From IMG/VR virus record IMGVR_UViG_3300036987_000083, positions 64,001-128,000 of that record: 64,000 bases of DNA, one strand, 5' to 3'. Made by a program: the position numbers and the translations under genes. Every line of letters begins with the position of its first letter. Position 1 is the first letter of the stretch. Source of the stretch: a virus. Positions 264 through 21,600 of the stretch are shown one piece after another. The notes under the pieces were generated by a model, which worked only from the letters and a program-made list of their open reading frames with translations, was not told the origin of the DNA and searched no databases.

Positions 264-611
264 TTACTTCTTCAGGAACTTCGTGGAGCCCTTGGGGAGC
301 GCGGGCGACTTGAACTTCTCGGCGTGATCACGCAGGGCGTTGTCGAGAGCTTCCATGAGCTGCTCGCGCATGAACTCTTTGGGCGCGCCCATGGAAATCA
401 GAGGCTGAATGGCGATGGTCATCAACGCGCGGAGCGTCCGGCGAGCGTGCGCCACGTTATTCATGGGGTCGTAACCCAGCAGGGCTGACAGCTTGGAGGC
501 CACCACCGGGCCAATGGAGTGCTGAATGCCGGTACGGGTGAGGGCGTTGTTGGTGCCCGTGTCCTGCCCCAAGTTGGCCTTGAACTTGTCGAACTTCGCG
601 AGTGCGCTCAT
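264..611 (-). CDS. hypothetical protein (115 aa), paralogue of 7248-7565
   Basis: Start re-set to ATG 611 after AAAGGAAACACA leader; track start 671 is the TTG of the -35 box. Confidence 0.75.
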   Translation of the reverse strand: MSALAKFDKFKANLGQDTGTNNALTRTGIQHSIGPVVASKLSALLGYDPMNNVAHARRTLRALMTIAIQPLISMGAPKEFMREQLMEALDNALRDHAEKFKSPALPKGSTKFLKK

Positions 612-773
612 TGTGTTTCCTTTCGACAGCGGGGTAGCACCCTTATACCGCGAAAGGTCTGCCGTTGTCAAGGGCTTCTTTGTCGGCCGGGGAACCTCCA
701 GCCCAGGTCGAGGCGTCCGGAAAACTCCCTATGGTGGGCGCGCTCTCCAGTCATCCTGGGGCTGCGTTTTCGT

Positions 774-983
774 CTACAGGAGCCCGCGCCGCATCGCTTC
801 GGCGGTCAATTCATCCACCGTAAATCGGTGCCTCACTAAGCTGCCATAGCGGTCGGCTCCCTCGCCGAGTCCCGGGCCTGGCGGCTCGGATAGGGACAGC
901 GCCACCAGCGCCCGAGCCGCTTGGCGCTCAGTGTACCCAGCCGCCAGCATCGCGTCCCACAGTACGGCCTCGGTGGGCGTCAC
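774..983 (-). CDS. hypothetical protein (69 aa)
   Basis: Last gene of a coupled 4-gene operon; GGAGAGAGG SD. Confidence 0.6.
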   Translation of the reverse strand: MTPTEAVLWDAMLAAGYTERQAARALVALSLSEPPGPGLGEGADRYGSLVRHRFTVDELTAEAMRRGLL

Positions 984-1207
984 AGCGTCACCTCTCTCCC
1001 TTCAAGCGCCGCATCACGAAGGACGGCGCATCTGGGGCATGTGGGGATGGTGGCGTGGAGGAGGTCGGCCGGTACAGTACCCCAACTGCCCAGCGCCGGA
1101 AGGTACTGGTTGTCACATGCAGCGACGTCGGACGGGAGTGACCTCCACTGAGCCCCCCTAAGAGCCGCCAAGCCCCGCACCGTCGCGTGCGTCAGTGGAA
1201 TGCTCAT
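980..1207 (-). CDS. small Zn-finger-like protein, paralogue 3 (75 aa)
   Basis: LTH..GL..ACD..TIPTCPRCAVLRDAALE motif shared with neighbours. Confidence 0.75.
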   Translation of the reverse strand: MSIPLTHATVRGLAALRGAQWRSLPSDVAACDNQYLPALGSWGTVPADLLHATIPTCPRCAVLRDAALEGREVTL

Positions 1208-1434
1208 GTCGTCATCCCCCGTCCCTCAAGCGCCGCGTCTCGCATTACAGCGCATTTGGGGCATGTAGGGATGGTGCTGGGGATACTCGACGCTGTTACG
1301 GTGTTTATAACGTCCTTCTTGCCGTCGCAGGCGCGAACCCACATCGGCAGGCGTTCATTGGCCACGACAAGGCCTTGCCCTCTCCTGATGTAGTCCAACC
1401 CCTGCACCGTCGCGTGCGTCAGTGGAATGTTCAT
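1204..1434 (-). CDS. small Zn-finger-like protein, paralogue 2 (76 aa)
   Basis: Start MNIPLTH at 1434; same motif; ATGA overlaps. Confidence 0.75.
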   Translation of the reverse strand: MNIPLTHATVQGLDYIRRGQGLVVANERLPMWVRACDGKKDVINTVTASSIPSTIPTCPKCAVMRDAALEGRGMTT

Positions 1435-1685
1435 CGTGCCACCTCCTGCACTTCGAGCGCCTCGTCTCGCATTACGGCGCACTTGGGGCAGGTGGGAACG
1501 GTGTCCGTGATTCGACACGCCATGACGAACGAGCCGAGTTGCGAGGAGCTGAGTGCTCTCACCCCATCGCAGGCGCGTACCCACTCGATGTCGGTCTGCA
1601 CGCCGCGCAGCCTTGCCAACCCCTTCAGCGACATGTGCGTCAAGCGGTGGTGGGAAGGAGCAACTGCGCTGTCCGGGGCGCTCAT
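1431..1685 (-). CDS. small Zn-finger-like protein, paralogue 1 (84 aa), leaderless
   Basis: ATG 6 nt below -10 TATAAG (1692-1697); same motif. Confidence 0.72.
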   Translation of the reverse strand: MSAPDSAVAPSHHRLTHMSLKGLARLRGVQTDIEWVRACDGVRALSSSQLGSFVMACRITDTVPTCPKCAVMRDEALEVQEVAR

Positions 1686-1856
1686 GAGGAGCTTATAGCA
1701 CTGTAAGCATGCTCCTGTCAAGCCTTAGATGCTAGTGAACGACAGAGCGGCCCAGGGCCCAAAATGGAATGCGCCGGACGTGACAAATGAAAATGGCCGG
1801 GAGCCCCGCAGCTCCCAGCCATTTCCACTCCACTCGAACTGAACATCGCCCCGCAG

Positions 1857-2207
1857 CTAGTTCAGCGAATGGATAAACCCGTCATCACCTACGAAAAGAG
1901 TAACCTCGTCGAAGTTGTCGCAGATGTCTGTCAGTGCTTCACCCCTGTCTCCCCAGTCACCGTCGAAAAATCCAGCGCCATGGCCATTCCTCGTGAGCCA
2001 AAAGTCGTGTCCGGCTTGCTCTGCCTCCGATTCGCCAATGAGTGCCGCCGCCTCTGCGAGGAACTTCTCGCAGTCCACCATCATTTGCTTCTTCAGCTCC
2101 CTTGTGAGGCTGCTGGGTCCATGAGTTGTGTCGAGGGGAATGTCGTTGTCTTGATGGGTCGAGGACCACAGAGCGCACTTGATGTATGCCGCAAGAAACG
2201 TCTCCAT
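1857..2207 (-). CDS. conserved phage hypothetical protein (GHDFWLTRNGHGAGF motif, 116 aa)
   Basis: Own promoter, AAAGGAG SD; motif recalled from phage hypotheticals, not searched. Confidence 0.8.
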   Translation of the reverse strand: METFLAAYIKCALWSSTHQDNDIPLDTTHGPSSLTRELKKQMMVDCEKFLAEAAALIGESEAEQAGHDFWLTRNGHGAGFFDGDWGDRGEALTDICDNFDEVTLFVGDDGFIHSLN

Positions 2208-2276
2208 GGTGTAGCTCCTTTCTCTCTGTTGATGGTCTAGTTATACGACAGATGACCTGCGACTGTCAAGTAGCAC

Positions 2277-2567
2277 CTAGTAGAGGTTCTCGGAGTAAAG
2301 CGTGCCACCGTTGACGGTATCTCCACCACAGCGCCGGAAAATTTGACCGGCGGCTTCGGCTATCTTCCATGCTTCAGTGCGCGTGTGGAAATTGCCGAAT
2401 TGGTCGATGAAGCCTGCGTCCCACGACCAATCTTCTTCGCTGGTTCTCCCTACTGCGGCGATTAGGTTCCGCATGGTCATGTCCATGTGTCTAGGGCCAG
2501 GAATGATTAGACCACTACGTCCACGGTTGGCAGCGCAGACGATTCTGGGCGAGGCTCTGTTGCTCAT
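2277..2567 (-). CDS. conserved phage hypothetical protein (IVCAA..GPRH..GFIDQ..LYSENLY, 96 aa), leaderless
   Basis: ATG 6 nt below -10; phage-type motif set. Confidence 0.8.
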   Translation of the reverse strand: MSNRASPRIVCAANRGRSGLIIPGPRHMDMTMRNLIAAVGRTSEEDWSWDAGFIDQFGNFHTRTEAWKIAEAAGQIFRRCGGDTVNGGTLYSENLY

Positions 2568-2674
2568 GGCCGGACTTTACCACTGGTGACTGTCTTGGTC
2601 AAGAGACGGGTGGGGCGACCACATGGTCGCTTGCGTCGAAGTGGAGGATGCAGTGGGAGTTTTCCTGCCAGGAC

Positions 2675-2716
2675 AAAAAAACCAGGGCGCGTCAGGCCCC
2701 GCAACCTGACGCGCCC
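2675..2716 (-). terminator. intrinsic terminator after ADP-ribosylglycohydrolase
   Basis: 12-bp stem GGGCGCGTCAGG/CCTGACGCGCCC plus U-tract; similar hairpins end most early cassettes (about 5030, 7195, 7933, 8969, 10369, 11120, 13466, 15399, 16018, 16764, 17757, 18786, 19915). Confidence 0.85.
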
Positions 2717-2725
2717 CCTCTGTGC

Positions 2726-3817
2726 TTACCGCGTCTTATCGCAGCGAATGCAGTAGGACTGGCCGCGATGGTTGTCCCAGCGGTGGTTGCAGCTCTCCTG
2801 CCGCGCTTGCGTCGCTTCCTTGCTGTAGAACTTGCGTGAGTCCTTGTCCGCGTTCCTATCGAACTCAGAGTCCAGCGCCCCCTCGTGCTCCGCGATGTTG
2901 GAGCAGTTGAGCAGCAATTCCGCGTGGCGCTCCAGCCCTGTGGCCTGAAACTCGTCAGGGCGATGCACCTTTGCGAGCGCGACCGTATGCACCCACTTGG
3001 CGGGAATCCGCCTCATGCCGTGGAAGGCCCCGAGGAGCGCCCCGACAATGCAGCCGTTGGTGTCCGCGTCCCCGCCGCGCATCACGGTGTTCACCACGCC
3101 TTCCTCGAAGGTGGGAGTGCTGAGGAGGTGGTGGAACGCGAGGCGGAAGGCCAGCCGGACATGACCCCCGCCGGTAAACCCGAGGTCGCCCGCCTCCGCG
3201 CGGTTCAAGTCTTCGAGGCATTCCGTCGCCCCGATGAGGGTTGCCCCTCGCTTGGCGAAGTCGAACACCTCCCGCGCAGTACGACCCGGGAGCCGGATGC
3301 ACCGCGCGATGGTGGCCACGAAGATGCCGCTGGCGTCCTGACACACCTTCGCCGGGTGAGTAAGCGATGCGTCCAGCCTGCCCAGCTTCGCCGCCTCCAG
3401 CGGGTGGAGCTTCCAAGCGAAGACCCCCAGCGGGCTGACACGCATCAGCGCCCCGTTGGCCTCCGTGGTGGAGTTGGGGTGATTCCCCCGAAGCGCCTGA
3501 CTCGTCGCACACCCCATGTCGATGGGGTGCGAGTTGGCCCACCGCTGGTAAGCCTCGAAGACCTTGGTGGAATCGTAGCAGCCCTCCCTCCCGAGGGAGC
3601 CCGCGAGCGCCATGGCCATCTCGGTGTCGTCCGTCACCTGCCCCGGTACGACACGGAAAGCCCCGCCGCCGACGATTTCGCGGAGCCCCTCCGGGTAGAG
3701 GCGCCGGCACTCAGACTCACCCTTGAATTCCAGCGTGGTTCCGAGGGCATCGCCCGTGGCTTGCCCATAGAGGGCTCCGAGGGCTCGAAAATACTGGGTG
3801 TCGTTTGCGGGGCTCAT
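2726..3817 (-). CDS. ADP-ribosylglycohydrolase (ARH/DraG family, 363 aa), leaderless, short C-terminal Cys/His finger
   Basis: GQATGDALG, TDDTEM, ANGALMR, GGDADTNGCIVGALLGA motifs; start MSPAND 6 nt below -10. Confidence 0.92.
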   Translation of the reverse strand: MSPANDTQYFRALGALYGQATGDALGTTLEFKGESECRRLYPEGLREIVGGGAFRVVPGQVTDDTEMAMALAGSLGREGCYDSTKVFEAYQRWANSHPIDMGCATSQALRGNHPNSTTEANGALMRVSPLGVFAWKLHPLEAAKLGRLDASLTHPAKVCQDASGIFVATIARCIRLPGRTAREVFDFAKRGATLIGATECLEDLNRAEAGDLGFTGGGHVRLAFRLAFHHLLSTPTFEEGVVNTVMRGGDADTNGCIVGALLGAFHGMRRIPAKWVHTVALAKVHRPDEFQATGLERHAELLLNCSNIAEHEGALDSEFDRNADKDSRKFYSKEATQARQESCNHRWDNHRGQSYCIRCDKTR

Positions 3818-3849
3818 GGTGTCCTTATACCTGAAGTTGACTGCTGTTG

Positions 3850-4065
3850 TCAAGCACCACCGGCTGCGGGTTTGAGTCTCACCCCTTCGGGCCCCAGCAG
3901 CTCATTCACGAGCTGCATTTCTTCATGGGTGATGCTGTAGACTTTCGCGGAGGTACACCAGCTCCCGTAGTCCATGGAACACTCAGGAAGAAGCCCGCGC
4001 ACCTGACTGATGGCTTTCGGGGAGTTCGGGTAAACGATGCAGTCAATGAGTTCTGACGCGGGCAT
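3850..4065 (-). CDS. hypothetical protein (71 aa), leaderless
   Basis: ATG 5 nt below -10 TACAAG; TGA stop inside next TTGACA. Confidence 0.6.
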   Translation of the reverse strand: MPASELIDCIVYPNSPKAISQVRGLLPECSMDYGSWCTSAKVYSITHEEMQLVNELLGPEGVRLKPAAGGA

Positions 4066-4181
4066 GGCTTCTTGTAGCACCAGGAGACTGCCGATGTCAA
4101 GCCTTAAGTAGTGGAGGATGCTGTGGGAGTTTTCCGTGCGGCGGGGACCTGGCGGCTTCGTAGCCACCTGGCCCTCCGAGG

Positions 4182-4469
4182 TTACTTCTCTACCACGTAG
4201 ACGCTCCACCAGAGAGCCTTGGGGTCGAGGCGCGCCGCGCCGGGATCCACGAGTGTGGATGTGCCGACGCGCAACTCCTCCCCCTTATCGAAGGGCTGCG
4301 TCTGGGCCCACTCGTGAGTCTGCCGGGTCAGCTCGTGGAAGCTCGCCACTTTCGCGCCCCGCTTGGGGTCTGGCGTCCAGTCGAACTTGAAGGCGTGCGT
4401 GGACCCGTGGGCGTCGAGCACGATGACACTGGCGACAGCGATGGGGGAGGTTTGGGGCTTGGGGTTCAC
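4182..4469 (-). CDS. hypothetical protein (95 aa)
   Basis: GTG start with AAAGGAAACACC leader. Confidence 0.65.
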   Translation of the reverse strand: MNPKPQTSPIAVASVIVLDAHGSTHAFKFDWTPDPKRGAKVASFHELTRQTHEWAQTQPFDKGEELRVGTSTLVDPGAARLDPKALWWSVYVVEK

Positions 4470-4542
4470 GGTGTTTCCTTTCCACTGCCCTAAGCCCGCT
4501 CCCCGGTACGCTGGGAAGCGGGCGGGGCGTCCATGTGGTCGC

Positions 4543-4857
4543 TTAGGCCGTCTTCTTCATCGGCTTCTGGAACTTCGCGTAACGGGCCTCCGCGCGCTTC
4601 ATGAGCCACGTCGTTCCGAAGTTGGTGGCCTCGAAGGTGCTCCGGTCGATGGTTTCGTCGAGGAGAGCGCGAATGTGCTTGCAGGTGTCCTTGAAGCCGT
4701 CGTGCTCCTTCGTGCCCTTCTTGTAGATCCACGACTTGCAGGAGCAGCCGAGGTAGCCCGTAGTGCGGAGCGCCACGACGTACTTCTCGGTCGGGTTGGT
4801 GCTGCTCCGAATGGCTCCGATTCGATTCCAGCCGTTCGTACTCGCCTTGTCGTCCAT
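4543..4857 (-). CDS. SWIM zinc-finger protein (104 aa)
   Basis: CSCKSW...CKHI = SWIM CxC..CxH; leader AAAGGAAACGAACC. Confidence 0.8.
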   Translation of the reverse strand: MDDKASTNGWNRIGAIRSSTNPTEKYVVALRTTGYLGCSCKSWIYKKGTKEHDGFKDTCKHIRALLDETIDRSTFEATNFGTTWLMKRAEARYAKFQKPMKKTA

Positions 4858-5094
4858 GGTTCGTTTCCTTTCCAGCGGGGGTTGGACTGCCAGCCATGTA
4901 TACCGCGAATGACGTGCTCTTGTCGAGCTTTTTGTTTGTCCCAAATGAAAATAAACGGCAGGGCATTTGCATAATGCGGCAGGACTAGGGTACGGAAAAC
5001 TCCCGTCTCAGGGCCTGGCCCTGGGCGTGAAGAAGCCCGCCCCTCGTTGGAAGGGCGGGCTGGGCGTTTCCACTGAGCTAGTCGTTGATGCCTG

Positions 5095-5313
5095 TCACGC
5101 GGCCTGTGCGAGCTTCGGAAGCCTCGCGGCGCACCTCGCCCTGATGGAGTCCGCCGCGACACCCGCCATGTCGCACACCTCCTCGAAGTCGGCGGACTGG
5201 TCCTCGTCGAAAATCCACGAGCGCGCCTCCTCGTAGACCTCAGGCTTCTTGCCTGAGAGGTCTTCCATCGCCGCCAGCACGACTGCCATCCACAGCGTTC
5301 GTTCCCGTTCCAT
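5095..5313 (-). CDS. hypothetical protein (72 aa)
   Basis: MERERTLW..DFEEVCDMAG; own promoter and GGAG SD. Confidence 0.7.
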   Translation of the reverse strand: MERERTLWMAVVLAAMEDLSGKKPEVYEEARSWIFDEDQSADFEEVCDMAGVAADSIRARCAARLPKLAQAA

Positions 5314-5377
5314 GTGCGCTCCGTGGGGTGTTGCGAGGTTCGAGCAATATACCTCAGAAGCCCTGCCGTTGTCAAGC

Positions 5378-5590
5378 TCAGAAGGGGTTGAGCGTGAAGC
5401 CCGTTGCCTTGATTTCTTCGGGCGTGGCCCCGGCCCTGATTGCGCCGTCATGCAGCAAGCGGAGCATTTCCAGCCAACTGTCTCGGTTCCAGCCTGGAGG
5501 GAGCCCCCGAGGCTGGTTGCGTAGGGTGTTGAGGGCCCGCTGCTTCGCGGCCTTCATCAGGAATGCAGTCACTTCATCCTGCTTGGACAC
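5378..5590 (-). CDS. hypothetical protein (70 aa)
   Basis: GTG start with AGGAG SD; operon with 5614-5844. Confidence 0.6.
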   Translation of the reverse strand: MSKQDEVTAFLMKAAKQRALNTLRNQPRGLPPGWNRDSWLEMLRLLHDGAIRAGATPEEIKATGFTLNPF

Positions 5591-5613
5591 GCGCCGCTCC
5601 TGTTGCTAAGCAG

Positions 5614-5844
5614 CTAGGGCTTGCGCGCCATCGTTCGCAGGAACGAAGCGGGCACCACCACGGGGTCGCTGTCACTCGTGAATCCGCGAGTCTCCAAGTA
5701 CGAGCACATCTTTTCCTTCGCCCGAGCCTCGTCAGTGGCGCTGATAACCTTCACGAGAGTATGAATGTCCGCGCAGCACTCCCCCATGTAGCCGGAGGCG
5801 ATGAGAAACTTGCGGAGCGTCTTCTTGGTCTTGGGGTTGGCCAT
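5614..5844 (-). CDS. hypothetical protein (76 aa), probably leaderless
   Basis: Promoter directly upstream. Confidence 0.7.
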   Translation of the reverse strand: MANPKTKKTLRKFLIASGYMGECCADIHTLVKVISATDEARAKEKMCSYLETRGFTSDSDPVVVPASFLRTMARKP

Positions 5845-5886
5845 GGGGGATACTACTAGCAGGGTTGGTCTGCCGTTGTCAAGCCC

Positions 5887-6093
5887 TTATCTGCCCTTGC
5901 GTCCATTCTTCTTGCGCTGGCGCTCGGCCTTCTTGCGCTTGCGAGCCTCTGCCGTGGCCTCGAAAGGCTTAGTGTGGTGAAGGGGCTGGCGCATGGCCTT
6001 CCAGCCGTCGTGCCGCTCGGTGTAATGGGGAGAGGGGGAGCTGAGGGCCGTGCCAATCATGGTGGCGACTGCAAGAGCGTTCGGAGAGGTCAT
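5887..6093 (-). CDS. basic hypothetical protein (68 aa), leaderless
   Basis: ATG 6 nt below -10; Lys/Arg-rich tail. Confidence 0.65.
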   Translation of the reverse strand: MTSPNALAVATMIGTALSSPSPHYTERHDGWKAMRQPLHHTKPFEATAEARKRKKAERQRKKNGRKGR

Positions 6094-6176
6094 TCCACCA
6101 GTCTACCCCAAGAGCCCTGCCGTTGTCAAGAGTGGAACCTGGCGGGAGTTTTCCAACCCGCCCTGGCCGTTTGCAC

Positions 6177-6210
6177 AAAAAAAACCCACCGACCTTTCGG
6201 CCGATGGGTT
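6177..6210 (-). terminator. strong intrinsic terminator ending the pseudoknot transcript
   Basis: ACCCATCGGCC-GAAA-GGTCGGTGGGT followed by T8. Confidence 0.85.
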
Positions 6211-6228
6211 TGTTTGTTTGGTAGTGAA

Positions 6229-6259
6229 GCGCCGAAGTTATAGGGTCAGCGCGGCCCTA
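6229..6259 (-). ncRNA. H-type pseudoknot copy B
   Basis: UAGGG-CC-GCGCUGA-CCCUA-UAACU-UCGGCGC; S1 5 bp, S2 7 bp with one U.G wobble. Confidence 0.7.
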
Positions 6260-6274
6260 AGTACGCTCAAGCAT
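6257..6274 (-). CDS. minigene MLERT*
   Basis: GGGGAG SD 7 nt upstream; UAG stop is 5' strand of pseudoknot B. Confidence 0.5.
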   Translation of the reverse strand: MLERT

Positions 6275-6351
6275 GGTGGCTCTCCCCGCCTTTTTATTCA
6301 TTCAGTGTTTTTTCCAGAGTATGGGTACTCCTCACGTTCTGTTGAGTGAGG

Positions 6352-6379
6352 CCCGGAAGTTATAGGGTCCGGGGCCCTA
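6352..6379 (-). ncRNA. H-type pseudoknot copy A
   Basis: UAGGG-C-CCCGGA-CCCUA-UAACU-UCCGGG; S2 covaries with copy B. Confidence 0.7.
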
Positions 6380-6403
6380 CCGTAAACCCAATGTGCCTGT
6401 CAT
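6377..6403 (-). CDS. minigene MTGTLGLR*
   Basis: GAGG SD; UAG stop is 5' strand of pseudoknot A. Confidence 0.45.
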   Translation of the reverse strand: MTGTLGLR

Positions 6404-6480
6404 TTGCCCTCGGGCGGTTAGAGAAGTTGTTTGACTGCCTTGCTGCTTTCGGTTTCAGCGAGCCCCCCGGCCGTGCCGTG

Positions 6481-7027: not shown

Positions 7028-7247
7028 GGGGTGTTCCTTTCGACTGCGGGGTGCGCCAGTAATACCATGTTGACCCTGCGATGGTCAAGGTATTTGAAGC
7101 GCCCAAAGAAAATAAATGGCAGGGCATTTGCACAGCCTGCTATTTCCAGGCCATAGGGGGAAGGAAAACTCCCGATTCAGGGGACCTGGCACAAGAAAAA
7201 GCCCGCTGACCCTGAGGGGCCAGCGGGCGGGGCGACCATGTGGACGC

Positions 7248-7565: not shown

Positions 7566-7742
7566 GGGGTGTTCCTTTCGACTGCGGGTGTGCCCCACTA
7601 ATACCACGTTAGGCAATCAATGGTCAAGGTATTTGTTTCGACCGAATGAAGATAGCTGGCACGCGAAATGATTTCCAGGATTACGCTGGACAATGAGTTG
7701 CCCATGTCCTGCATGCGGGAGGGAGGGAAAACTCCCCGCAGC

Positions 7743-7984: not shown

Positions 7985-8410
7985 TTACTCCGTGAGGGGC
8001 TTCAGCTCCGCGAGCACCTTCGCGAGGGTGAAGGGGCCCAGCTTCTTGTTGTGCCCGCCCTTGGGGATAATCAGGGCCGTTGGCGTGGGGTCGCCCTTGT
8101 CTGAATTCATGTAGTGCTCGGGGTCCGCCAGCTCCAGCAGCTCCGACACAACACTTTCTTTGTCCAGCATCAAACCCGAGTACCAGCGGGGGCCACAGCA
8201 TTCACACATGGACTCCGAGTAGTCCGGCTGGTCCGAGAGTCGCTCCCCCGCCTCCTGCTCGCAGTCCGCCTCGACGTACACCTGTTTCGCGGGCCCGGTG
8301 TAGAAGCCCCCGCTGTTGTTTTGCCAAAAGCGGAACCACGGGCCTTCCGCGAGGACCGTCTCCAGCATGGGCACCAAGCCCTCGGGGGTGCTCGCGTTGG
8401 TGTTCTTCAT
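7985..8410 (-). CDS. conserved phage hypothetical protein (QNNSGG..CECCGPRW, 141 aa)
   Basis: Leader plus promoter; Cys motif. Confidence 0.8.
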   Translation of the reverse strand: MKNTNASTPEGLVPMLETVLAEGPWFRFWQNNSGGFYTGPAKQVYVEADCEQEAGERLSDQPDYSESMCECCGPRWYSGLMLDKESVVSELLELADPEHYMNSDKGDPTPTALIIPKGGHNKKLGPFTLAKVLAELKPLTE

Positions 8411-8484: not shown

Positions 8485-8841
8485 TCAGAGCGCGTAAACC
8501 GCGCTGTACCACGACGTACACTGCTCGACGAAGGCCCCGGCCCTCGCCAGCGCCACGCGGCCTTCCTCCATGAGGCCATACTGCTCGTAGTCGAAGTTGC
8601 AGACAGGGGCCACGTCGCCGCCGTCATGCACGATGACGAAAAGGCCCTCGGTGCCGTACTCCTCACCCCGCGCCTTCCACTCCTCGGGGGTGTAGAACGT
8701 GGTGCAGCCCCCGGTGTGGGTCCGGCCCTTCTTCACGAGGAAGGCAACGAAGGCCTCGTAAGCCGCCCGAGCCTTGGGGTCGGCGAGGGTGATGGAGTTG
8801 AGGTCGTTCTTCGGAGCGTTGCGGGCGGAGTTGGCGGGCAT
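8485..8841 (-). CDS. conserved phage hypothetical protein (GGCTTFY..HDGG, 118 aa), leaderless
   Basis: ATG 6 nt below -10. Confidence 0.8.
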   Translation of the reverse strand: MPANSARNAPKNDLNSITLADPKARAAYEAFVAFLVKKGRTHTGGCTTFYTPEEWKARGEEYGTEGLFVIVHDGGDVAPVCNFDYEQYGLMEEGRVALARAGAFVEQCTSWYSAVYAL

Positions 8842-9017
8842 GGGTAATCAATACAGCAAATGGGGGTCACTTGTCCAGCCCTTAATTGAACTACTATTTG
8901 CCATGCCAACTGTCGTTGTCGGGCGGGGGAGGAGTTTTCCATGCTTTGTTCTGCGAAACCTGGCACAAGAAAAAACCCCGCCCCTTCGCGGGAGCGGGGT
9001 CGCGTCCATGTGGTCGC

Positions 9018-10413: not shown

Positions 10414-10842
10414 TCAGCAGTCGTAGCCGCCGTTTTCCATGCGCCGGGTGTAGGCGTCCGCGCGGTCATCGTCGGCGCGGGCCTGCTCCTGCTGCTCCCA
10501 GATGGCGAGGTCTGCCTGCTGGGCAGCGTCGCAGGACGCGAAATCCACGACAGGGACGACGCGGAGGCCCTTGCACTCGGCGCACTGCACGTCATACGCG
10601 CCCGCGAAGTAGGCTTCCTCGAAGTCGGGGTCCGCGTCGAACTCCTCCTGACTGATGCCCTGCGAGTCGATGGAGGGGTTGACGTGCGTGCCCTTGCCCT
10701 GACAGGTGCCGCACACCTCGAACTTCGCCGGGAAGTCGGTGTCCACCTCGTCACCCTCCGGGTCGTAGATGGTGAGCGTTACGGTGTTGGCCTTGGGGTC
10801 GAATCGGTTGGCGGGGAAGTTACGCTCTCGACGGTCGGGCAT
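10414..10842 (-). CDS. DnaJ-type CxxCxGxG zinc-finger phage protein (142 aa)
   Basis: CGTCQGKG and CAECKG motifs; conserved leader. Confidence 0.8.
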   Translation of the reverse strand: MPDRRERNFPANRFDPKANTVTLTIYDPEGDEVDTDFPAKFEVCGTCQGKGTHVNPSIDSQGISQEEFDADPDFEEAYFAGAYDVQCAECKGLRVVPVVDFASCDAAQQADLAIWEQQEQARADDDRADAYTRRMENGGYDC

Positions 10843-11765: not shown

Positions 11766-11884
11766 GGTGTTTCCTTTCGACTGCGGGGTGCGCTAGGTAT
11801 ACAGCCAATGGCGTGCGATTGTCTAGCTCTTTGTTCGGCTCAATTGAAAGTAGTTGGCACGGTAAATGATATTTGAACTGGGGG

Positions 11885-13068: not shown

Positions 13069-13201
13069 GCCCCACTTATACAACGAAAGGTCTGCCGTTG
13101 TCAAGCATCCCGAGGGGGGAAGAACTCAAACAAAATGCTTGCACAATGGCGGTTCATAGTGTATTGAAGGGGTGCAGTTCAACCCGCTCAAAGGAAACCG
13201 A

Positions 13202-13306: not shown

Positions 13307-13513
13307 GCCGCTTCGTGCGGGAGGTGGCGGCGAGCGCCGCCGTCACCTTCGCGGTAGGCGCAGCCGTGATTCTCCTCCTCACCCTTCTCAGTTGAAGGGA
13401 GCCCGGCCCGAAAGGGTCGGGTGTCCCTGTGGGATGGAAAACTCCCTCCCCTGGAATTTAGGCACAAAAAACCCGCCAGCCCCGAAGGGCTAGCGGGCGC
13501 GCTGCGGGTCGAG

Positions 13514-14823: not shown

Positions 14824-14931
14824 TTAGCGGCAGACGGGGCAAACCGACTTGCCCTTGACCGTCTGTGTCGGACGGCCACAACACATCTTTGGGAAGACCA
14901 CGACGACTGCGGGCGGGGTGGTGGGGCTCAT
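14824..14931 (-). CDS. Cys-rich micro-protein (35 aa), leaderless
   Basis: MSPTTPPAVVVVFPKMCCGRPTQTVKGKSVCPVCR; 6 nt below TATAAG. Confidence 0.6.
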   Translation of the reverse strand: MSPTTPPAVVVVFPKMCCGRPTQTVKGKSVCPVCR

Positions 14932-14962
14932 TCCCACCTTATACACGCAACGTCTGCCGTTG

Positions 14963-15169
14963 TCAACCCCTGTAGGGTTCGACCTTGTAGCCCTGCCGCG
15001 TGATGGCCTCGCTGAAGGAAAACGGCGTGTTGCGGTGAATCCACTTGAAGCACTCGTTATGCCCGGCGGGGCCCGTGTCTTTCGAGGTGAAGACGACGAC
15101 GAGCCCGCCAGCGCCGCCGTTCCACGTGTTAATGATACGGAAGCGGTGCGGGGTTTCGGTCTGGCTCAT
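14963..15169 (-). CDS. hypothetical protein (68 aa)
   Basis: Leader plus promoter; stop in next TTGACA. Confidence 0.75.
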   Translation of the reverse strand: MSQTETPHRFRIINTWNGGAGGLVVVFTSKDTGPAGHNECFKWIHRNTPFSFSEAITRQGYKVEPYRG

Positions 15170-15226
15170 GGGGTGTTCCTCTCACCTGCGGGGTGCCCAA
15201 GGAATACAGCGAAATGCCTGCCGTTG

Positions 15227-15319: not shown

Positions 15320-15434
15320 GGGCCCCTTTCTAGTCCATAGCCCTCCCATTGTCAAGCCCAAAGGAGAGGGAAAACTCCCTCCCGAGTCCCTGGGCACGAA
15401 AAGGCCCGGCTCCCTTTCGGGGCCGGGCGGCACT

Positions 15435-15653
15435 TCAGAAGTCGGACTCACCCCCATAGTCGTAGTCATTGTCATGGGCGAAATCCTCGTTTTCCTTGAG
15501 GTCGCCGGGGTCCCCCTCGTTGTAGTAGCCCGGAGGGAGGGGTTCGTTGTCGAAGTCGATTTCCTCGCCGGGCTCCGGGGGAACATCCCCCTGCGGGTCC
15601 ACAGCGTCGAAGTCGGGGGCGTGCTTACCGTCACGGATGGAAACGAGGGGCAT
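15435..15653 (-). CDS. highly acidic small protein (72 aa)
   Basis: AGGAG SD; Asp/Glu-rich. Confidence 0.7.
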   Translation of the reverse strand: MPLVSIRDGKHAPDFDAVDPQGDVPPEPGEEIDFDNEPLPPGYYNEGDPGDLKENEDFAHDNDYDYGGESDF

Positions 15654-15714
15654 GCGGGGCTCCTGTTTGGGGTGTCCCTACTTATACAGCGGATTGACTG
15701 TCAGTGTCAAGTGC

Positions 15715-15918
15715 CTAGTTGACGCGAATCGTCGCGACGAACGCCACGATGGCCGCCTCCACCGCCGAGTCGTCGCCCCCGGCAGCGGCAGCGGCCTTGC
15801 CAGCGGCAAACACCTTGGGAATGGCCATCAGGGGAATCTGGACCCCCGAGCAGCTCTGCCCGTAGATGCGGGTGATACGGGCGTCGAGGGCCTTCTCTTC
15901 TTTGGTCTGGCGGGGCAT
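15715..15918 (-). CDS. hypothetical protein (67 aa), leaderless
   Basis: ATG 5 nt below TATAAG. Confidence 0.7.
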   Translation of the reverse strand: MPRQTKEEKALDARITRIYGQSCSGVQIPLMAIPKVFAAGKAAAAAGGDDSAVEAAIVAFVATIRVN

Positions 15919-16067
15919 GACCCCTTATACAGTGGAAGGTCTGCCGTTGTCAAGCTATAAACGGCGCCTTCCGACAATCCGAGTCGGGGAAAACTCCCAC
16001 CTTGTGTCCCTGGGCACGAAAAAGCCCGCCTCCCTTTCGGGAAGCGGGCGGCCCTGCCGTGAGGCCG

Positions 16068-16421
16068 TCAGTCGATGGCCCACGGGGCGGCGTTGTAGCC
16101 GGGGAGGGTGCAGACCGTGGCTCGCGTCAAGTCGTCGAGGAAGCTGGCGGCCTTGGAGTCCTTCCACCCGTCATGCTCGCAGCTCTGGTACTGAAGGCTT
16201 TGAATCGCCTTCAGCACCCCCACGGCGTCAACCGCGCCGAGGAAGCGGGTGAAGCGGTACGGCGGAGGCAGCGCCTTTTCCGCGTAGCGGGCGTTGACGC
16301 TGAGGAAATTCTCGCTCCAAAGCATCTGGCCCACGGCATTGGGGTCCATGGATCCCATGGACCCCATGGCGGCAGTAACCAGCAAGTCGATGTGCTTCTT
16401 CGTCACGATGAAGGCGCTCAT
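16068..16421 (-). CDS. conserved phage hypothetical protein (EN..SV..RY..YQSCE, 117 aa)
   Basis: Start re-set to MSAFIV after conserved leader. Confidence 0.8.
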   Translation of the reverse strand: MSAFIVTKKHIDLLVTAAMGSMGSMDPNAVGQMLWSENFLSVNARYAEKALPPPYRFTRFLGAVDAVGVLKAIQSLQYQSCEHDGWKDSKAASFLDDLTRATVCTLPGYNAAPWAID

Positions 16422-16477
16422 TGTGTTTCCTTTCAGGCAGCGGGGTGCCCTCTTATACAGCGAAAGGTCTGCCGTTG

Positions 16478-16669
16478 TCAAGGGCAACAGTGATTGTTCG
16501 GAACCTCCCACCAAGCCATGATGAAGAAGCCCGGCGGAATCCGCTCTTTCACTGACTCGGCGGCTTCCTCCGCCGTCGCGCCCACACCGTCAAAGACGGT
16601 GAAGCGGTAGACGTGCTTTTCCCCCGGAATCAGGGTCGTCTGGTTTGTTACAAAATGGTATTTTTGCAT
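16478..16669 (-). CDS. hypothetical protein (63 aa)
   Basis: Promoter upstream; stop in next TTGACA. Confidence 0.65.
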   Translation of the reverse strand: MQKYHFVTNQTTLIPGEKHVYRFTVFDGVGATAEEAAESVKERIPPGFFIMAWWEVPNNHCCP

Positions 16670-16814
16670 GGCGGGTGCCCCACAATACTACGCAGGGTCT
16701 GCCGTTGTCAAGCTCTTTGTGCCGTAGGGGGAGGGAAAACTCCCTTCCTGAAACCCTGGCATGAAAAAGCCCGCCAACCCCGAGGGGCTGACGGGCTCGC
16801 GTCCATATGGTCGC

Positions 16815-17090
16815 TTAGGCGCGGACGCGGATTTGAACGTGGAAGAACTCGCACGCCTGACGCCATGCGTCGAAGCGGTCCGAGGCGCGGAAGAACCGCT
16901 CGCCTTCCGCGAACGTCACGCGGAACAGCGGGCGCCCGCTGCCCCAATAGGCGCCGCCCGAGTCGTAGCCGCCCTTGTCAATCGGAATGCGGTGAAGGCC
17001 GCACAGCTCCCCCTCCATCGGGGAGCCGTATTCCGAGCGGCCCATGGAAGCGCCGTACTGCGAGCAGGCATTCGAGAGCTTGAGGGACAT
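16815..17090 (-). CDS. conserved phage hypothetical protein (GGYDSGGAYWG, 91 aa)
   Basis: Leader plus promoter; palindrome after stop. Confidence 0.8.
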   Translation of the reverse strand: MSLKLSNACSQYGASMGRSEYGSPMEGELCGLHRIPIDKGGYDSGGAYWGSGRPLFRVTFAEGERFFRASDRFDAWRQACEFFHVQIRVRA

Positions 17091-17146
17091 GGGGTTTCCT
17101 TTGTTTCAGCGGGGGAGCCCCTTATACTGCGAAGGGGCTGGCGTTG

Positions 17147-17473
17147 TCAAGCGTTCCGTTCGTAGGAGCGAACGATTTCCGAGAGGTCTGGCGGAGCTTC
17201 GGGGAGCCCGAGATCCTCCGAGAGGTCTTTCAGGGCATCCGAGAGGCAGTAGGGGGAGGGGCTGCCGCACTTCGCCTCATGGGCTGCCCATTCCTCCAAC
17301 GCTTCCCCCCTGTCGTGGGCGAGGCACTCGGCGCACACCGCGAGCGCGCCCCCGTGGTCTGCTTCGGTGTAGAGGTAGACGGCTTCCACCACCCGCCGCT
17401 TAGGGTCGTGGCTCCCATGGTCACAGAGAGGGGGAGCGCCATCGGGGCCGTGCGTAACGCGCTTGAGAGCCAT
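17147..17473 (-). CDS. Cys/His-containing hypothetical protein (108 aa)
   Basis: AAAGGAAG SD; CD..H, CAEC. Confidence 0.7.
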   Translation of the reverse strand: MALKRVTHGPDGAPPLCDHGSHDPKRRVVEAVYLYTEADHGGALAVCAECLAHDRGEALEEWAAHEAKCGSPSPYCLSDALKDLSEDLGLPEAPPDLSEIVRSYERNA

Positions 17474-17527
17474 GAGCTTCCTTTCGGCTGCGGGGCCTCT
17501 AAGTATACTACGAAAGGGCTGGCGTTG

Positions 17528-17680
17528 TCAAGCCTTCGGAGGCACGTAGCGAACGAACACCTTGCACTTACAGCCGGGCACCGTGCAAGCCTGCGGCGGC
17601 TTCGCGGGCGGCTGGTAGACGTGCATCGAAACGTGGTGCTTGCAGCCTTGGCACTTCTTCAGACGCGGGGAGGTAGCCAT
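17528..17680 (-). CDS. Zn-finger micro-protein (50 aa), leaderless
   Basis: CQGCKH..H..CTVPGCKC; ATG 6 nt below TATAAG. Confidence 0.7.
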   Translation of the reverse strand: MATSPRLKKCQGCKHHVSMHVYQPPAKPPQACTVPGCKCKVFVRYVPPKA

Positions 17681-17809
17681 GCCTACCTTATACACAACGG
17701 CAGTCAGGAAGTCAAGTACCCATAGTTGGAAAACTCCCGTCTCGAAAACCTGGCACAAAAAAGCTCGCCTTCCACGAGGGAGGCGAGCGGGCTCCACGAG
17801 TCAGGGGTT

Positions 17810-18061
17810 TCACTCGTCGTAATGAATCACGTAATCCACCACGTCGCCCGTGAAAACCCGGCCGCCCGCGAGGAAGATGGTAGCGAAGTAGGGGTGAGAG
17901 TCGTCGAACGTCGAGACAATGCGGCCGGGGGAGTAGAACTCCAGAATTTCGTCGTGAAGCTTTTGATCGACCCCCGCAGCATCGAAGCCGGTGAAGTCTC
18001 CGTTGATGAAGGCGGTAGCGAGGAACGCGGGGAGGCGAGCGGTTTCGATGCGGAAGGCCAT
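17810..18061 (-). CDS. hypothetical protein (83 aa)
   Basis: AAGGAG SD and promoter. Confidence 0.75.
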   Translation of the reverse strand: MAFRIETARLPAFLATAFINGDFTGFDAAGVDQKLHDEILEFYSPGRIVSTFDDSHPYFATIFLAGGRVFTGDVVDYVIHYDE

Positions 18062-18185
18062 GGGGTGTCTCCTTGTGACTTCGCGGGAGCCCCTTATACT
18101 GCGAAGGGGCTGGCGTTGTCAAGCTTTCTGTTTCAGCGCGGCGCGGAAAACTCCCGCCAGGTGCGGCGCGCTGCCCGCCACTCGG

Positions 18186-18395
18186 CTAGCGGGGCACGTC
18201 GTTAGCTGCCCGTTCGATGTCCAGTTGAGCGAGGGCGATGCGAAGCACGTCCTTCGCGTCGAGAACGGGGGACGGCCTCAGCGGGCTGGCGTCCTTCCGT
18301 CGCAGGGAGGCCCCGCAGGGCTCGTAGTCTCTCGCGAGTTCTTCCAATGTCTCAGGCATCGGGGGTGCTTTGTTGCGGCTGTCTTCGGTCGCCAT
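18186..18395 (-). CDS. hypothetical protein (69 aa)
   Basis: ATG 2 nt after upstream stop. Confidence 0.5.
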   Translation of the reverse strand: MATEDSRNKAPPMPETLEELARDYEPCGASLRRKDASPLRPSPVLDAKDVLRIALAQLDIERAANDVPR

Positions 18396-18397
18396 AG

Positions 18398-18670
18398 TCA
18401 GGCCCACGGCGCCAATTCCACCGGGTTGAGCGCGGGGCGCGCATCGGAGAGGCGCGGCAGCCGATACGCACTCACCGTGACGAAGCCGGGGGAGGACGTG
18501 AGGGCCGCGCACTCCTCGGGCGTCATGGGGCGCGCCTCGCTCACCTTCTGGGGGACGGCTTCGATGATTTCGTCACCCGGCTCCAACCCCGGGCAGGTGT
18601 CCGGGCGCTCGGACTTCACGGAGAAGAGGCTACCGGAGCGGACATCACGAACCACGATGCGGAAGGTCAT
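18398..18670 (-). CDS. hypothetical protein (90 aa)
   Basis: GAGGAAACC leader and promoter. Confidence 0.7.
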   Translation of the reverse strand: MTFRIVVRDVRSGSLFSVKSERPDTCPGLEPGDEIIEAVPQKVSEARPMTPEECAALTSSPGFVTVSAYRLPRLSDARPALNPVELAPWA

Positions 18671-18870
18671 TCGGGTTTCCTCTCGTCTGCGGGGGACTCC
18701 CTTCTACACCGGATGCCCTGCCGGTGTCAAGCACTATCCGCGCGGGTAGCCTGTGGAAAACTCCCTTTCCGAAAACCTGGGCATGAAAAAGCCCGCCTCC
18801 CTCATCGGGAAGCGGGGCTGCGAGGGTTGGGCCGGGGCTCCAAGGCGGCCCCGGCGTGGCCCTCTAGGGG

Positions 18871-19149
18871 TTACTTGCTGCTGAGGGCCTTCAGCGCCGC
18901 CCGCATGCCCTCGGCAGACACCTTCCACTCCGGAATGCCGCCGTCGAGGTCGAGGCCGACGCAACCCTCGATTGAGGACTTGTAGTAGCGGGAAACGAAC
19001 TGCCCGTAAGGGCCGTGCGGGTAGCGGGTGTCGTAGAACTCAACCAGCTCCTCGCCATCGGAGGTGAAGAGCATCACGTTGAAGTTGACGCCCGGAAGGG
19101 TTCCGGGGACCGTGGCGAGGTGGGTGCGGGTGGCGGGGGCGGAGGACAT
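18871..19149 (-). CDS. hypothetical protein (GQFVSRYY..GLDLDGG.P.W, 92 aa), leaderless
   Basis: ATG 5 nt below TATAAG. Confidence 0.75.
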   Translation of the reverse strand: MSSAPATRTHLATVPGTLPGVNFNVMLFTSDGEELVEFYDTRYPHGPYGQFVSRYYKSSIEGCVGLDLDGGIPEWKVSAEGMRAALKALSSK

Positions 19150-19299
19150 GCCTCCTTATACAGCCTTTGCCTTGCCGCTGTCAAGCTCTCTCCATGCCCA
19201 TTCGTCGAATTTGCAGGAGGGGAGTTTTCCAACGTCAATTGGCACAAAAAATCCGCTGGCCCCAGGTTTGGGTGCCAGCGGATGCGACCACGTGGGCGC

Positions 19300-19782
19300 T
19301 TACGCCGCGAGGGGCAGGCGCACCGTGAGGGGCGCGGTGTCGCACTCGACGGGCGGGGGCAGCGGGCGGAGCCAGACGCGCTCGGCGCTCTCGTGCCTCT
19401 TGAGGTCCGGGCAGAACTCGCCCGCCTCGCGCTTGAAACACTCCCAGCCCTCGGGAACGAACCACGCGCCGTCATCGTACCATGAGGTGATGACTTCGAA
19501 GCTGTAGACGCCCTCGCCCGCAGGCTCCCAGTGCGCGGGCACCGTGGGCACCGCCTCGGGCGCATCGTCGATGTTGGCGCACTCGCCCGTGCAGCAGCAG
19601 CAGGAGCAGCCATTCTCCTCCATGGCCTCGCGCGCCTCGCGCGCCTTCTCGGCCTCGCTGGCCTCCACCGCGTCAGCCGCCTGCTCGTCGAGCCAGTCGG
19701 CGAGGGTGGCACCACGCGAGGGCATCGCGCGGGCGGGAGGGGAGATACGGAGGGTGGCGGGGCGAGCGGGGCGGGAGTGCAT
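19300..19782 (-). CDS. hypothetical protein with CSCCCC cluster (160 aa), leaderless
   Basis: ATG 6 nt below TAGAAT; palindrome after stop. Confidence 0.7.
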   Translation of the reverse strand: MHSRPARPATLRISPPARAMPSRGATLADWLDEQAADAVEASEAEKAREAREAMEENGCSCCCCTGECANIDDAPEAVPTVPAHWEPAGEGVYSFEVITSWYDDGAWFVPEGWECFKREAGEFCPDLKRHESAERVWLRPLPPPVECDTAPLTVRLPLAA

Positions 19783-19961
19783 GCACACATTCTACACTAT
19801 GACATGGCACCATTGCAACTCATTTGAAGGGCCCAATTGAAAATAAATGGCACAGCATTTGATTGCGCAATTAGACTGCCATGGGAGGAGGAAAACTCCC
19901 AATCGCTAGGCGTGAAAAAGCCCCGCCTCCCTGTGGGAAGCGGGGCCGTCCATGTGGTCGC

Positions 19962-20234
19962 TTAGGGCTTCACAGCACCCTTGGCGAGCAGGCCCGCGTA
20001 GTGCGCGCGCGCCCACTTGATGGGGTGAATTTCGTGACCGTGGGACTGCTTGCGGGTGTTGCTGAACTCCATCACACCCACAGCCACGCCACCCGTGGGC
20101 AGGGGCGCGAACACGGTGAGCGAGGAGGTAGCGGCGTTGTAGAGCGCGTGCTGACCTTCAGGCAGGCTCGCGACGTAGGTCACGACAGCGCGGGGGAGGA
20201 CAGCGGCAGCGGCAGCGGGGCGGGAAGTGGTCAT
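19962..20234 (-). CDS. hypothetical protein (90 aa), leaderless
   Basis: ATG 6 nt below TAAAAG. Confidence 0.7.
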   Translation of the reverse strand: MTTSRPAAAAAVLPRAVVTYVASLPEGQHALYNAATSSLTVFAPLPTGGVAVGVMEFSNTRKQSHGHEIHPIKWARAHYAGLLAKGAVKP

Positions 20235-20321
20235 GCACCCCTTTTACAGGATGAGCACGCCACTTGTCTAGTTATTTGTTTCGGTCAAATGAAGATAGTT
20301 TTGGGCACCTGGCGCACCGCG

Positions 20322-20450
20322 TTAGACGTCGACCCCGAGTTCCTTGCAGCGCTTGCGCAGCTCTTCAGAGAGGCGAGGCTTTCGGCCGCATCGGCACTCT
20401 TCTTCGAGTAGGTCTTCAATCAATTTACGAAGCAATTCCGTTTCAGTCAT
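20322..20450 (-). CDS. small protein (42 aa)
   Basis: ATG 1 nt after upstream stop; MTETELLRKLIEDLLEEECRCGRK... Confidence 0.5.
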   Translation of the reverse strand: MTETELLRKLIEDLLEEECRCGRKPRLSEELRKRCKELGVDV

Positions 20451-20451
20451 T

Positions 20452-20673
20452 TCAGAGTCCTTGGCACTTCCTACAGTCGCACTCTCCCCAGACGGAAGCC
20501 CCGCAGGGAGGCTCCTGAGGAGGGTACAGGGCGCGAAGGTACTCGCGGGCGGCTTGCCGGGCCTGCTTCTCGATGGCGCGCTCCTGAATGTCGGCGGAGG
20601 CCCCTGACTGCACCCGATGACGGGGGATTGCCCGCTTAAGGTTTTGCCCCACCTTTCTCTCTCGGTAGCTCAC
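20452..20673 (-). CDS. Cys-containing protein (73 aa)
   Basis: GTGA overlap, GAGGAGG SD. Confidence 0.6.
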   Translation of the reverse strand: MSYRERKVGQNLKRAIPRHRVQSGASADIQERAIEKQARQAAREYLRALYPPQEPPCGASVWGECDCRKCQGL

Positions 20674-21044
20674 TGCGAAGCCTCCTCTCTCAACTCCCAC
20701 TCTCGGCGGGTGCCCACGTCGTAGTTACCTTCTTCGAGGTCCGCCAACGCCTCCCACTTCTGCCACTCCCTCGCGTACTCTGGAGAGCCGTAGCAGGGCT
20801 GAATCGCGTGCCAGTGCGGATTGAATTGCGGCGGGCGGAAACGTCCCTCCTTCATGGCAAGGGCAACCCGCCCCATCATCCGCAGCCCCTCCGCGTGTGC
20901 CTCCTCCCTCCCCAACTCGTGCCCTTTGAAGACATGGGCATGCGCCCACCGACTCCCCCTCTCATTCTCGACGACGACAGACACCGCGTCGTGTTCATCG
21001 CAACCCTGTTGGTACACATTCACCATGAGGGAGACGATGAACAC
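20670..21044 (-). CDS. hypothetical protein (W..IQPCYGSPEY, 124 aa)
   Basis: First gene of leftward array; GAGG SD, promoter 21075-21104. Confidence 0.7.
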   Translation of the reverse strand: MFIVSLMVNVYQQGCDEHDAVSVVVENERGSRWAHAHVFKGHELGREEAHAEGLRMMGRVALAMKEGRFRPPQFNPHWHAIQPCYGSPEYAREWQKWEALADLEEGNYDVGTRREWELREEASQ

Positions 21045-21600
21045 CGGACACCTCAGGGACTTCGGGGGAGCCCCCTCCTACCACATGACAAGTCATAGTG
21101 CAAGCGTCTTGCAGGGGTGCATGGAGGGTTGCCGGTGGTGTAGACACCGGGAAAACTCCGGGAAAACTCCCATACATGGTATAAGAGGGCCTACTTCTCC
21201 GGTTCAGAACATTTAGAAAAGTAGGTCCTATAAGCAGGGCCCTCCACCTTCAGTCATATTCCGGGGTACCTGCGCCCCCTAGTCGCTGTACATTAAGTAC
21301 TGCCCTTGTACAGCACGGGATGGCCCCCATGGTACGGTGCCTCTAAGCGCTGAGCTGTGCGTACGGTGCGTATCGGTCCATCTCGGTGCGGACAGCGCGT
21401 CTGCCGGTGTCAAAACCCAAAAAGTTTGGATTTTACCAAAACCCGTTTTTGGAATTTTTGGTGGAACCAGGGGTGGGGCACCTGTTTGACAAGTGACTGC
21501 AACAGTGAAGGGAGCGCTTGGCGAGTTTTTTTGAGTAGCAGGGTGTGGTGTTGTGGTATGGTGCGGTCAGCTTCCGAAAACCCTGACAACCGAGGTCCCT

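Follow-up and report, generated by a model that had tools for sequence, protein, structure and literature searches.

The subject of this study is an array of small genes in a viral DNA stretch of 64,000 nucleotides, termed the window, which comprises bases 64,001–128,000 of the 179,489-bp IMG/VR record IMGVR_UViG_3300036987_000083 (genome G000; estimated completeness, 88%). A window position plus 64,000 gives the genome position. Self-trained gene calls with a codon model divide the genome into two arms. The leftward one comprises ~200 small genes and occupies genome positions 1 to ~85,100 (window 21,044); the rightward one sets on at genome ~85,600. The array at window 264–21171 is the leftward-arm end closest to the divergence point, or the promoter-proximal end of an ~85-kb arm.

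The original prediction, made from the window alone, confined the array to these coordinates, and this limit does not hold. The gene calls and the maps of promoters and of two motifs described below, K and PAL, assign all of window 1–21171 (minus strand, ~62 small genes) to the promoter-proximal part of the leftward early or ORFan arm. The arm extends beyond the left edge of the window to genome ~270, and the promoters and K continue some 35–60 kb further left.

A gene-free region of 556 nt (21045–21600) separates the two arms, and it holds two adjoining copies of K at 21150–21171, one exact and one with one mismatch. From window ~21,600 rightwards, a plus-strand structural module encodes a portal, a prohead protease, a gp23-like major capsid protein (MCP), a tail sheath and a large terminase. 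The MCP shares at most 33% identity with that of any cultured phage, megablast of the window against cultured phages gives no match, and no T4 replication or recombination genes are recognised in the 88%-complete record of 179 kb. Judged by its genes, the phage is a novel gp23-type myovirus, large, uncultured, of ~60% GC and only distantly gp23-like.

The array had been described as about 60 small unrelated genes, nearly all leftward, and it is so. All but 5 of the ~62 small genes called at 264–21171 lie on the minus strand, and all-versus-all blastp within the array finds only two paralogue pairs. Among 30 array proteins scanned, 28 have no Pfam family above the cut-off, and two have one, an ADP-ribosylglycohydrolase (2726–3817, minus strand) and a DUF7296 protein (7985–8410). 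With family matches for these two only, the earlier talk of host-takeover and anti-defence genes was a guess. The ORFan cassettes may be regarded as a pool of candidate early host-interaction genes.

A Cys-rich protein of 142 aa is encoded at 10414–10842 (minus strand), and this gene served as the anchor that recovered the relatives described below. It has two CxxCxGxG-like motifs and belongs to a family widespread in phages, with at least 138 metagenome clusters and members in many unrelated large phages of 31–66% GC. Closer homologues, P0001–P0012, are 63–88% identical. Separately, a dispersed family of 72–90-aa proteins, 40–60% identical, occurs as three tandem pairs along the arm, at genome 38677/38913, 51617/51930 and 65204/65431, the last pair being window 1204–1685.

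Ordered elements between the array genes

The array genes are separated by repeated elements that follow one order in the direction of transcription: the palindrome PAL, an intrinsic terminator, a box termed W, the motif K, a promoter and a leader. Only 5 violations are found among 70 adjacent element pairs. In the spacer at 16670–16817, all the described elements are present in this order, and the example that the original prediction had drawn from 16706–16817 reads exactly as claimed. The elements are confined to the leftward arm, except for a few promoters and PAL.

The order is thus nearly fixed, but the prediction that most genes are bracketed by the same ordered elements was too strong. 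The 50 gene junctions of the window consist of 10 tight ones and 40 spacers, and the complete series is present in only ~6 of the latter. Promoters occur in 25 of the 40 spacers, K in 18, terminators in 14, leaders in 14 and PAL in 8. Short spacers of 32–74 nt carry a promoter with or without a leader, and long ones of 95–240 nt carry a terminator, W, K and a promoter. These two classes therefore imply transcription units of one to three genes. In the terminator-W-K-promoter modules the spacing is near-fixed, and the stem-loop lies ~50–60 nt upstream of the -35 box.

The elements stand out without prior choice of a motif. In an unbiased k-mer count, K, PAL and the -35 box top the 11-mers and 14-mers of the genome, the -35 box CTTGACAAYRGCAG being among the three commonest 11-14-mers. 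A repeat-family search likewise returns the promoter (24 copies), the palindrome, the terminator with the W sequence GTGCCAGG behind it, the leader and an A/T-rich module, so that all of these predicted elements are confirmed as repeat families. Rfam search of window 1–22000 finds no family.

The predicted promoters are of the sigma70 type, as illustrated by CTTGACAACGGCAG...TATTGT at 16682–16711 (minus strand). The exact form TTGACA-N16-19-TATAAG has 11 matches against 0.02 expected, all on the minus strand and all below window 19,200, for example at 642–671, 13075–13104, 15924–15953, 16452–16481, 17121–17150 and 18093–18122. Relaxing the -10 box gives 63 minus-strand sites between genome 271 and 84,241, compared with 8 in reversed-sequence controls, and CTTGACAA starts almost all of them. 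The whole arm has 63 of these putative promoters, about 30 of them within the window.

Between the -10 box and the start codon lie 5–8 nt in 29 promoters and 27–41 nt in 25, a sharply bimodal pattern in agreement with the prediction that the promoter is followed either by ATG directly or by a leader. The short distance implies that the mRNAs of those 29 promoters would be leaderless. The other 25 carry the common leader CCCCGCAGTCGAAAGGAAACACC. At 609–675 (minus strand), for example, a promoter is followed by the stereotyped leader (CCCCGCWGYCGAAAGGAAACAC, with the Shine-Dalgarno sequence AAGGA) and ATG. This spacer had been called near-identical to that at 16419–16485, and the two do agree at 55 of 67 positions without gaps ahead of unrelated genes. 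In a side observation, a leaderless Cys-rich mini-ORF of 35 aa lies at 14824–14930 (minus strand) behind the promoter at 14938–14966.

The A/T-rich module (..GTGCCATTTATTTTCTTTGGGC..CAAATA at 7092–7130, minus strand; other copies at 4931–4969, 7632–7670, 11830–11868 and 19823–19861) precedes promoters with a weak -35 box, namely TTGACC, TAGACA, TCGACA or TTGCAA, as would a UP-like element. The same TGGCA-containing module was considered as a sigma54 promoter (TGGCAC-N5-TTGCW) and rejected, there being 4–5 matches against 1 in the control. In the window array, the sigma54-like matches occupy the plus strand, which is antisense to the genes, and often have TTGA as the -12 element.

The stem-loops are predicted to act as intrinsic terminators. 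The example at 16764–16796 (minus strand) joins a GC hairpin (16769–16796) to a T-tract (16764–16768), with a folding energy of -36 kcal/mol and a z-score of -2.8. Others are at 2684–2717, 7201–7228, 8974–9001, 13471–13498, 16024–16049 and 18792–18816. Directly after the T-tract comes the W box RTGCCAGG (16755–16762, minus strand, in the example), always in the orientation of the terminator and 9–11 nt ahead of a sense-oriented K.

K, GGGAGTTTTCC, is the commonest 11-mer of the genome, with 30 exact copies against 0 in the control; in the example spacer it occupies 16734–16744 (minus strand). It is intergenic and sits between terminator and promoter, in a stretch that is presumably not transcribed. 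The original prediction gave the spacer elements in one minus-strand order. The elements are real, but K occurs in both orientations, being inverted in 9 of 25 window copies and in nearly all copies further left. It was rejected as a directional promoter, because both orientations occur ahead of same-strand genes.

The gap from K to the -35 box is near 22 nt for sense copies and mostly 14–16 nt for inverted ones, and this places K at about -55 to -65. K is thus probably a protein-binding upstream element active in either orientation, as an activator or a repressor site. Elsewhere in the arm, ~1 kb without a called gene (genome 26,777–27,824; L376) contains two K copies 34 nt apart (27462 and 27496) and a PAL at 27234.

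PAL, GCGWCCAYRTGGWCGC, is a perfect palindrome of 16–22 bp with the half-site GCGWCCAY. In the example (16799–16814) its first base directly follows the stop codon, and in at least 12 genes it begins right after or overlaps the stop codon. It had been predicted as an element of the array spacers; the repeat family is present there, but PAL occurs genome-wide at ~45 sites, some of them between structural genes and some immediately upstream of -35 boxes. In the window array it starts at 2615, 4527, 7232, 9002, 10398, 12538, 14412, 16799, 19284 and 19946, and in the structural arm of the window at 29575, 33225, 46270 and 55692.

PAL can fold as RNA. However, the pair 4–13 is broken in 20 of 54 sites without compensatory change, A7 and T10 of the supposed loop are invariant, and the centre is only CAYRTG. 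These features disfavour an RNA hairpin and better fit a DNA site of a dimeric protein. PAL is then probably the operator of a dimeric DNA-binding protein used genome-wide.

Gene order and junctions in relatives

A metagenome scan with the 10414–10842 protein as the query found two contigs with the same grammar, L313 (13.9 kb; homologue 82% identical) and L314 (3.4 kb; homologue 88% identical). K, PAL, W, the promoter and the leader of G000 all recur as motifs in both. Other searches were less productive. The ADP-ribosylglycohydrolase as the anchor gave no close relatives, and no close relative of the early arm was found in IMG/VR. Exact-pattern scans of IMG/VR with the -35 box, the leader, the promoter and K plus promoter gave single chance matches only. 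A W-plus-K scan of 185,579 prokaryote genomes gave at least 120 single chance matches, none with a second motif among the matches listed, and a literature search for the motif strings found nothing relevant.

The gene order is not fixed among these relatives, as the original prediction of exchangeable cassettes had it. The L313 genes that have counterparts in the array run in the order, by window kb, of 17.1, 13.9, 15.7, 14.8, 13.3, 9.9, 12.4, 11.9, 11.5, 11.1, 8.9, 0.6, 7.7, 6.4, 7.0, 6.2, 5.6 and 4.9. Adjacency with G000 is kept in 6 of 37 neighbouring gene pairs in L313 and in 0 of 7 in L314. Genes without a counterpart anywhere in the 179-kb record number 16 of 38 and 3 of 8, respectively.

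Between the genes 10414–10842 and 8485–8841, the three phages have three different inserts. L313 and L314 agree mutually over 1.3 kb and both lack the same four G000 genes. As a control, L009 (MCP 92% identical) was compared with the structural module, and the two are collinear across 17.3 kb at 74–80% nucleotide identity. Cassettes are thus scrambled, gained and lost at single-gene resolution between relatives, with the spacers kept. At the place corresponding to the 35-aa mini-ORF, L313 lacks both it and the 68-aa gene at 14963–15169.

The MCP relative in IMG/VR, G001 (67%), shares 27 of 324 proteins with G000, none of them from the array, and has no K; it is too distant for a breakpoint test. 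A palindrome of 22 bp, cAATCCGCCCGTACGGGCGGATTg, different from PAL but of the same build, occurs in it genome-wide in 14 copies. This difference suggests a lineage-specific operator, and hints at a regulator and operator pair that would co-evolve.

Where the homology blocks of the relatives end, 10 of 41 ends fall inside a promoter or K, whereas ~11% would be expected (binomial p=0.012). The L313 block 848–1321 runs from a -35 box to the last base of K, and the blocks 2–449 and 2213–2723 have -35 boxes at both ends. L314 2500–2921 is a promoter-leader-gene-promoter unit, homologous to window 17534–17120 and placed between other neighbours. Downstream of the anchor gene, L313 and L314 have the terminator and W in common, and beyond these they diverge: K is inverted and the genes that follow differ.

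Promoter modules are also copied within the genome. We compared pairs of promoters at 19 positions, the last 11 nt of the spacer that separates the -35 box from the -10 box and the 8 nt that follow the -10 box. Seven pairs are alike at 14 or more positions, against 0.8 expected from column shuffles, and two pairs are identical at 19/19 ahead of unrelated genes. In one of the two, the 40 nt at 17113–17152 (minus strand) are identical to 18085–18124 and both flanks are unrelated; the members of the other pair are both outside the window (genome 58,3xx and 54,8xx).

The identical modules span 40–45 bp, with sharp edges at gCTTGACA and, on the opposite side, ~8–12 nt past the -10 box. One promoter subfamily, ..CAGGGCA, accounts for 9 of 22 promoters in L313 and 2 of 65 in G000 (p=9e-5, for a subfamily chosen post hoc).

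Probable mobile regulatory cassettes and the alternatives

The motifs and their order, the leaderless geometry, the single-gene shuffling between relatives and the copied promoter modules together recall the promoter-early stem-loops (PeSLs), the mobile regulatory cassettes of the T4-type phages RB49/phi1, T4/PST and KVP40/nt-1 (Arbiol et al. 2010, PMC2839356; Comeau et al. 2014, PMC4122927). PeSLs are strong sigma70-like promoters with stem-loops in ORFan-rich hyperplastic regions and are points of homologous exchange (PMC2839356, PMC4122927). Minicircle release at these repeats was shown experimentally in RB49/phi1 (PMC2839356).

The likeness is extensive. In both systems, dozens of near-consensus sigma70-type early promoters are joined to stem-loop terminators, with an A/T-rich region upstream and a Shine-Dalgarno sequence and start codon at the 3′ end. 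The elements are concentrated in hyperplastic ORFan-rich regions, with a few copies in the conserved core too. Relatives differ by insertion, deletion or replacement of single genes, next to the elements in the T4-type phages and, at some of the block ends, apparently here too.

The differences are also clear. The phage here is only distantly gp23-like (MCP at most 33% to cultured phages) and of ~60% GC. Its stem-loop is a separate upstream intrinsic terminator that does not overlap the promoter. Three more motifs are conserved beyond the published PeSLs, as had been predicted: the palindrome of 16–22 bp, K in either orientation and the RTGCCAGG box. Half of the promoters are predicted to be leaderless, and the rest have one stereotyped leader.

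The early gene clusters of large lytic phages have many small genes with repeated strong host-type promoters, conserved flanks and interspersed terminators, as in the T4 early region and the SPO1 host-takeover module. The array resembles these clusters in its small early genes behind repeated host-type promoters with terminators between, but is denser, has more stereotyped spacers and extra motifs, and its shuffling is seen through relatives.

On our best reading, the array consists of PeSL-type cassettes that have extra motifs and belong to a distant lineage rich in GC; the data do not support an integron-like mechanism. The region is probably the start of an early-gene arm whose mobile regulatory cassettes are shuffled by recombination at the repeats. 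The small ORFan genes would form transcription units of one to three genes, each unit read from a promoter of the host sigma70 type, whose -35 box is extended, into an mRNA that is leaderless or has the Shine-Dalgarno leader. An intrinsic terminator would close the unit, and the other conserved motifs would stand in fixed order between it and the next promoter, with proteins presumably binding PAL and K.

The modules of 40–75 bp recur dozens of times in direct orientation and therefore offer portable homology. General recombination between them would delete, insert, duplicate and transpose promoter-gene-terminator cassettes, leaving the early arm hyperplastic and the structural arm collinear. 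RecA, RecT, ERF and sigma70 region 2 were not found in the 179-kb record, so that either host functions or phage proteins not recognised here would carry out the recombination. This reading would carry the PeSL idea beyond the cultured coliphages and vibriophages of the T4 type, into an uncultured and GC-rich lineage that is deeply divergent, with the turnover of the early arm visible at single-gene resolution. It would also describe a compact set of control elements, with ~60 predicted early promoters, half of them leaderless, one common leader and the abundant motifs PAL and K.

Several results weigh against recombination at the repeats. As many as 31 of the 41 block ends lie outside any repeat, many of them at start or stop codons or fading inside genes at 70–80% identity. 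A clean 730-nt indel runs exactly from stop to stop with only TGAG, a 4-nt microhomology, at the junction. The earlier expectation that breakpoints fall on the spacer elements agrees with a minority of the block ends, which is in significant excess, and some indels, such as this one, have no repeat at the junction. The relatives, at 70–88% nucleotide identity, are too diverged for single events of recombination to be seen. Within the genome, homogenisation or concerted evolution of the linker from K to the promoter is not significant (p=0.18), and no phage recombination gene is recognised in the 88%-complete record.

The strongest rival is that the repeats are purely regulatory, kept and convergent through the same RNA polymerase and regulators, with the turnover coming from illegitimate recombination and horizontal acquisition. 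Selection would then merely hold the junctions intergenic, and the repeats would not cause the shuffling. The microhomology indel, the many block ends outside the elements and the insignificant homogenisation test all suit it. However, it does not expect two promoter pairs to be identical at 19/19 little-constrained positions, an overall excess of near-identical pairs, or the amplification of one promoter subfamily in one lineage. The significant excess of block ends in the elements and the RB49/phi1 minicircles speak against it too. We regard it as rather unlikely.

Another idea is that PAL, K or both are recognition sites of an unrecognised protein that promotes cassette exchange, the array being a promoter-carrying gene-capture system of lytic phages. 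K would then label the region of crossover, and this would account for its change of orientation at places where the cassettes differ. We give this little credence.

Less probable still is an integron-like site-specific system, in which an unrecognised phage recombinase acts on PAL or K and moves the cassettes as circles. The array does resemble an integron in being a one-directional series of mostly unrelated small genes that varies in content from one relative to another, with a palindromic element directly behind many stop codons, like attC. K changes its orientation at orthologous spacers where the neighbouring cassette differs, some homology blocks stop exactly at K, and a novel recombinase could be hidden among the arm proteins, as most of them are ORFans.

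Nevertheless, the integron style of the original prediction falls on each defining feature that was tested. It had noted no recombinase in the window, and none is found in the whole 88%-complete record either: tyrosine recombinase PF00589 and serine resolvase PF00239 have no match, so neither IntI nor any other tyrosine or serine recombinase is seen. No attC-like site was found, since PAL is perfect, only 16–22 bp, genome-wide and in only 8 of the 40 window spacers, whereas attC is imperfect and 57–141 bp. Integron cassettes share a common Pc promoter, but here at least 25 of the 40 window spacers have their own, and the cassettes have their own terminators.

Moreover, PAL lies also between conserved structural genes and upstream of -35 boxes, the junctions are heterogeneous (-35 box, K or stop codon), and the distant G001 shares no gene of the array and has another genome-wide palindrome.

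Mis-joining of metagenome reads at the repeated spacers would make the scrambled order an assembly artefact, and all three sequences are indeed metagenomic assemblies of a repeat-rich region, but this is extremely unlikely because the exact repeats are at most ~45 nt and imperfect and because the contigs L313 and L314, from different records, agree in their common 1.3 kb and in the four absent genes, and 16 L313 genes have no counterpart in G000 at all.

Other features of the arm and the genome

A candidate small-RNA cassette lies at 6180–6400 (minus strand), in a gene-free spacer of 387 nt (6094–6480). It is ~95% identical to L313 10385–10625, and the flanking genes are only 70–85% identical to those of L313. 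Both copies have stops in all frames. The block folds into two hairpins that share a 10-nt loop, CCCUAUAACU; behind them comes an intrinsic terminator (6182–6211), and the block matches no Rfam family.

In the structural arm, the large terminase (41766–46259, plus strand) has 1497 aa, and its middle (residues ~870–960) matches HNH endonucleases, which suggests an intein or a nuclease insertion. Directly upstream lies an ORF of 1475 aa (36059–40486, plus strand) that has no PHROG match.

A locus at genome 4690–7355 (L375:4690-7355), 57 kb left of the window, holds a CRISPR-like array in which a 36-nt repeat (GTCTCGATTTCACAGCC...) occurs 11 times with a period of 72 nt. The array adjoins a gene for a 587-aa protein with a Cas12f1-like TNB domain (PF07282), and one solitary copy of the repeat occurs at genome 154,386. 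A 36-nt repeat related to this one (GTCTCGGAATTTCAAAGATCCGAGC...) is present in G001 (loci L139–L147), where it makes up an array at the left end and is scattered genome-wide in ~30 solitary copies.

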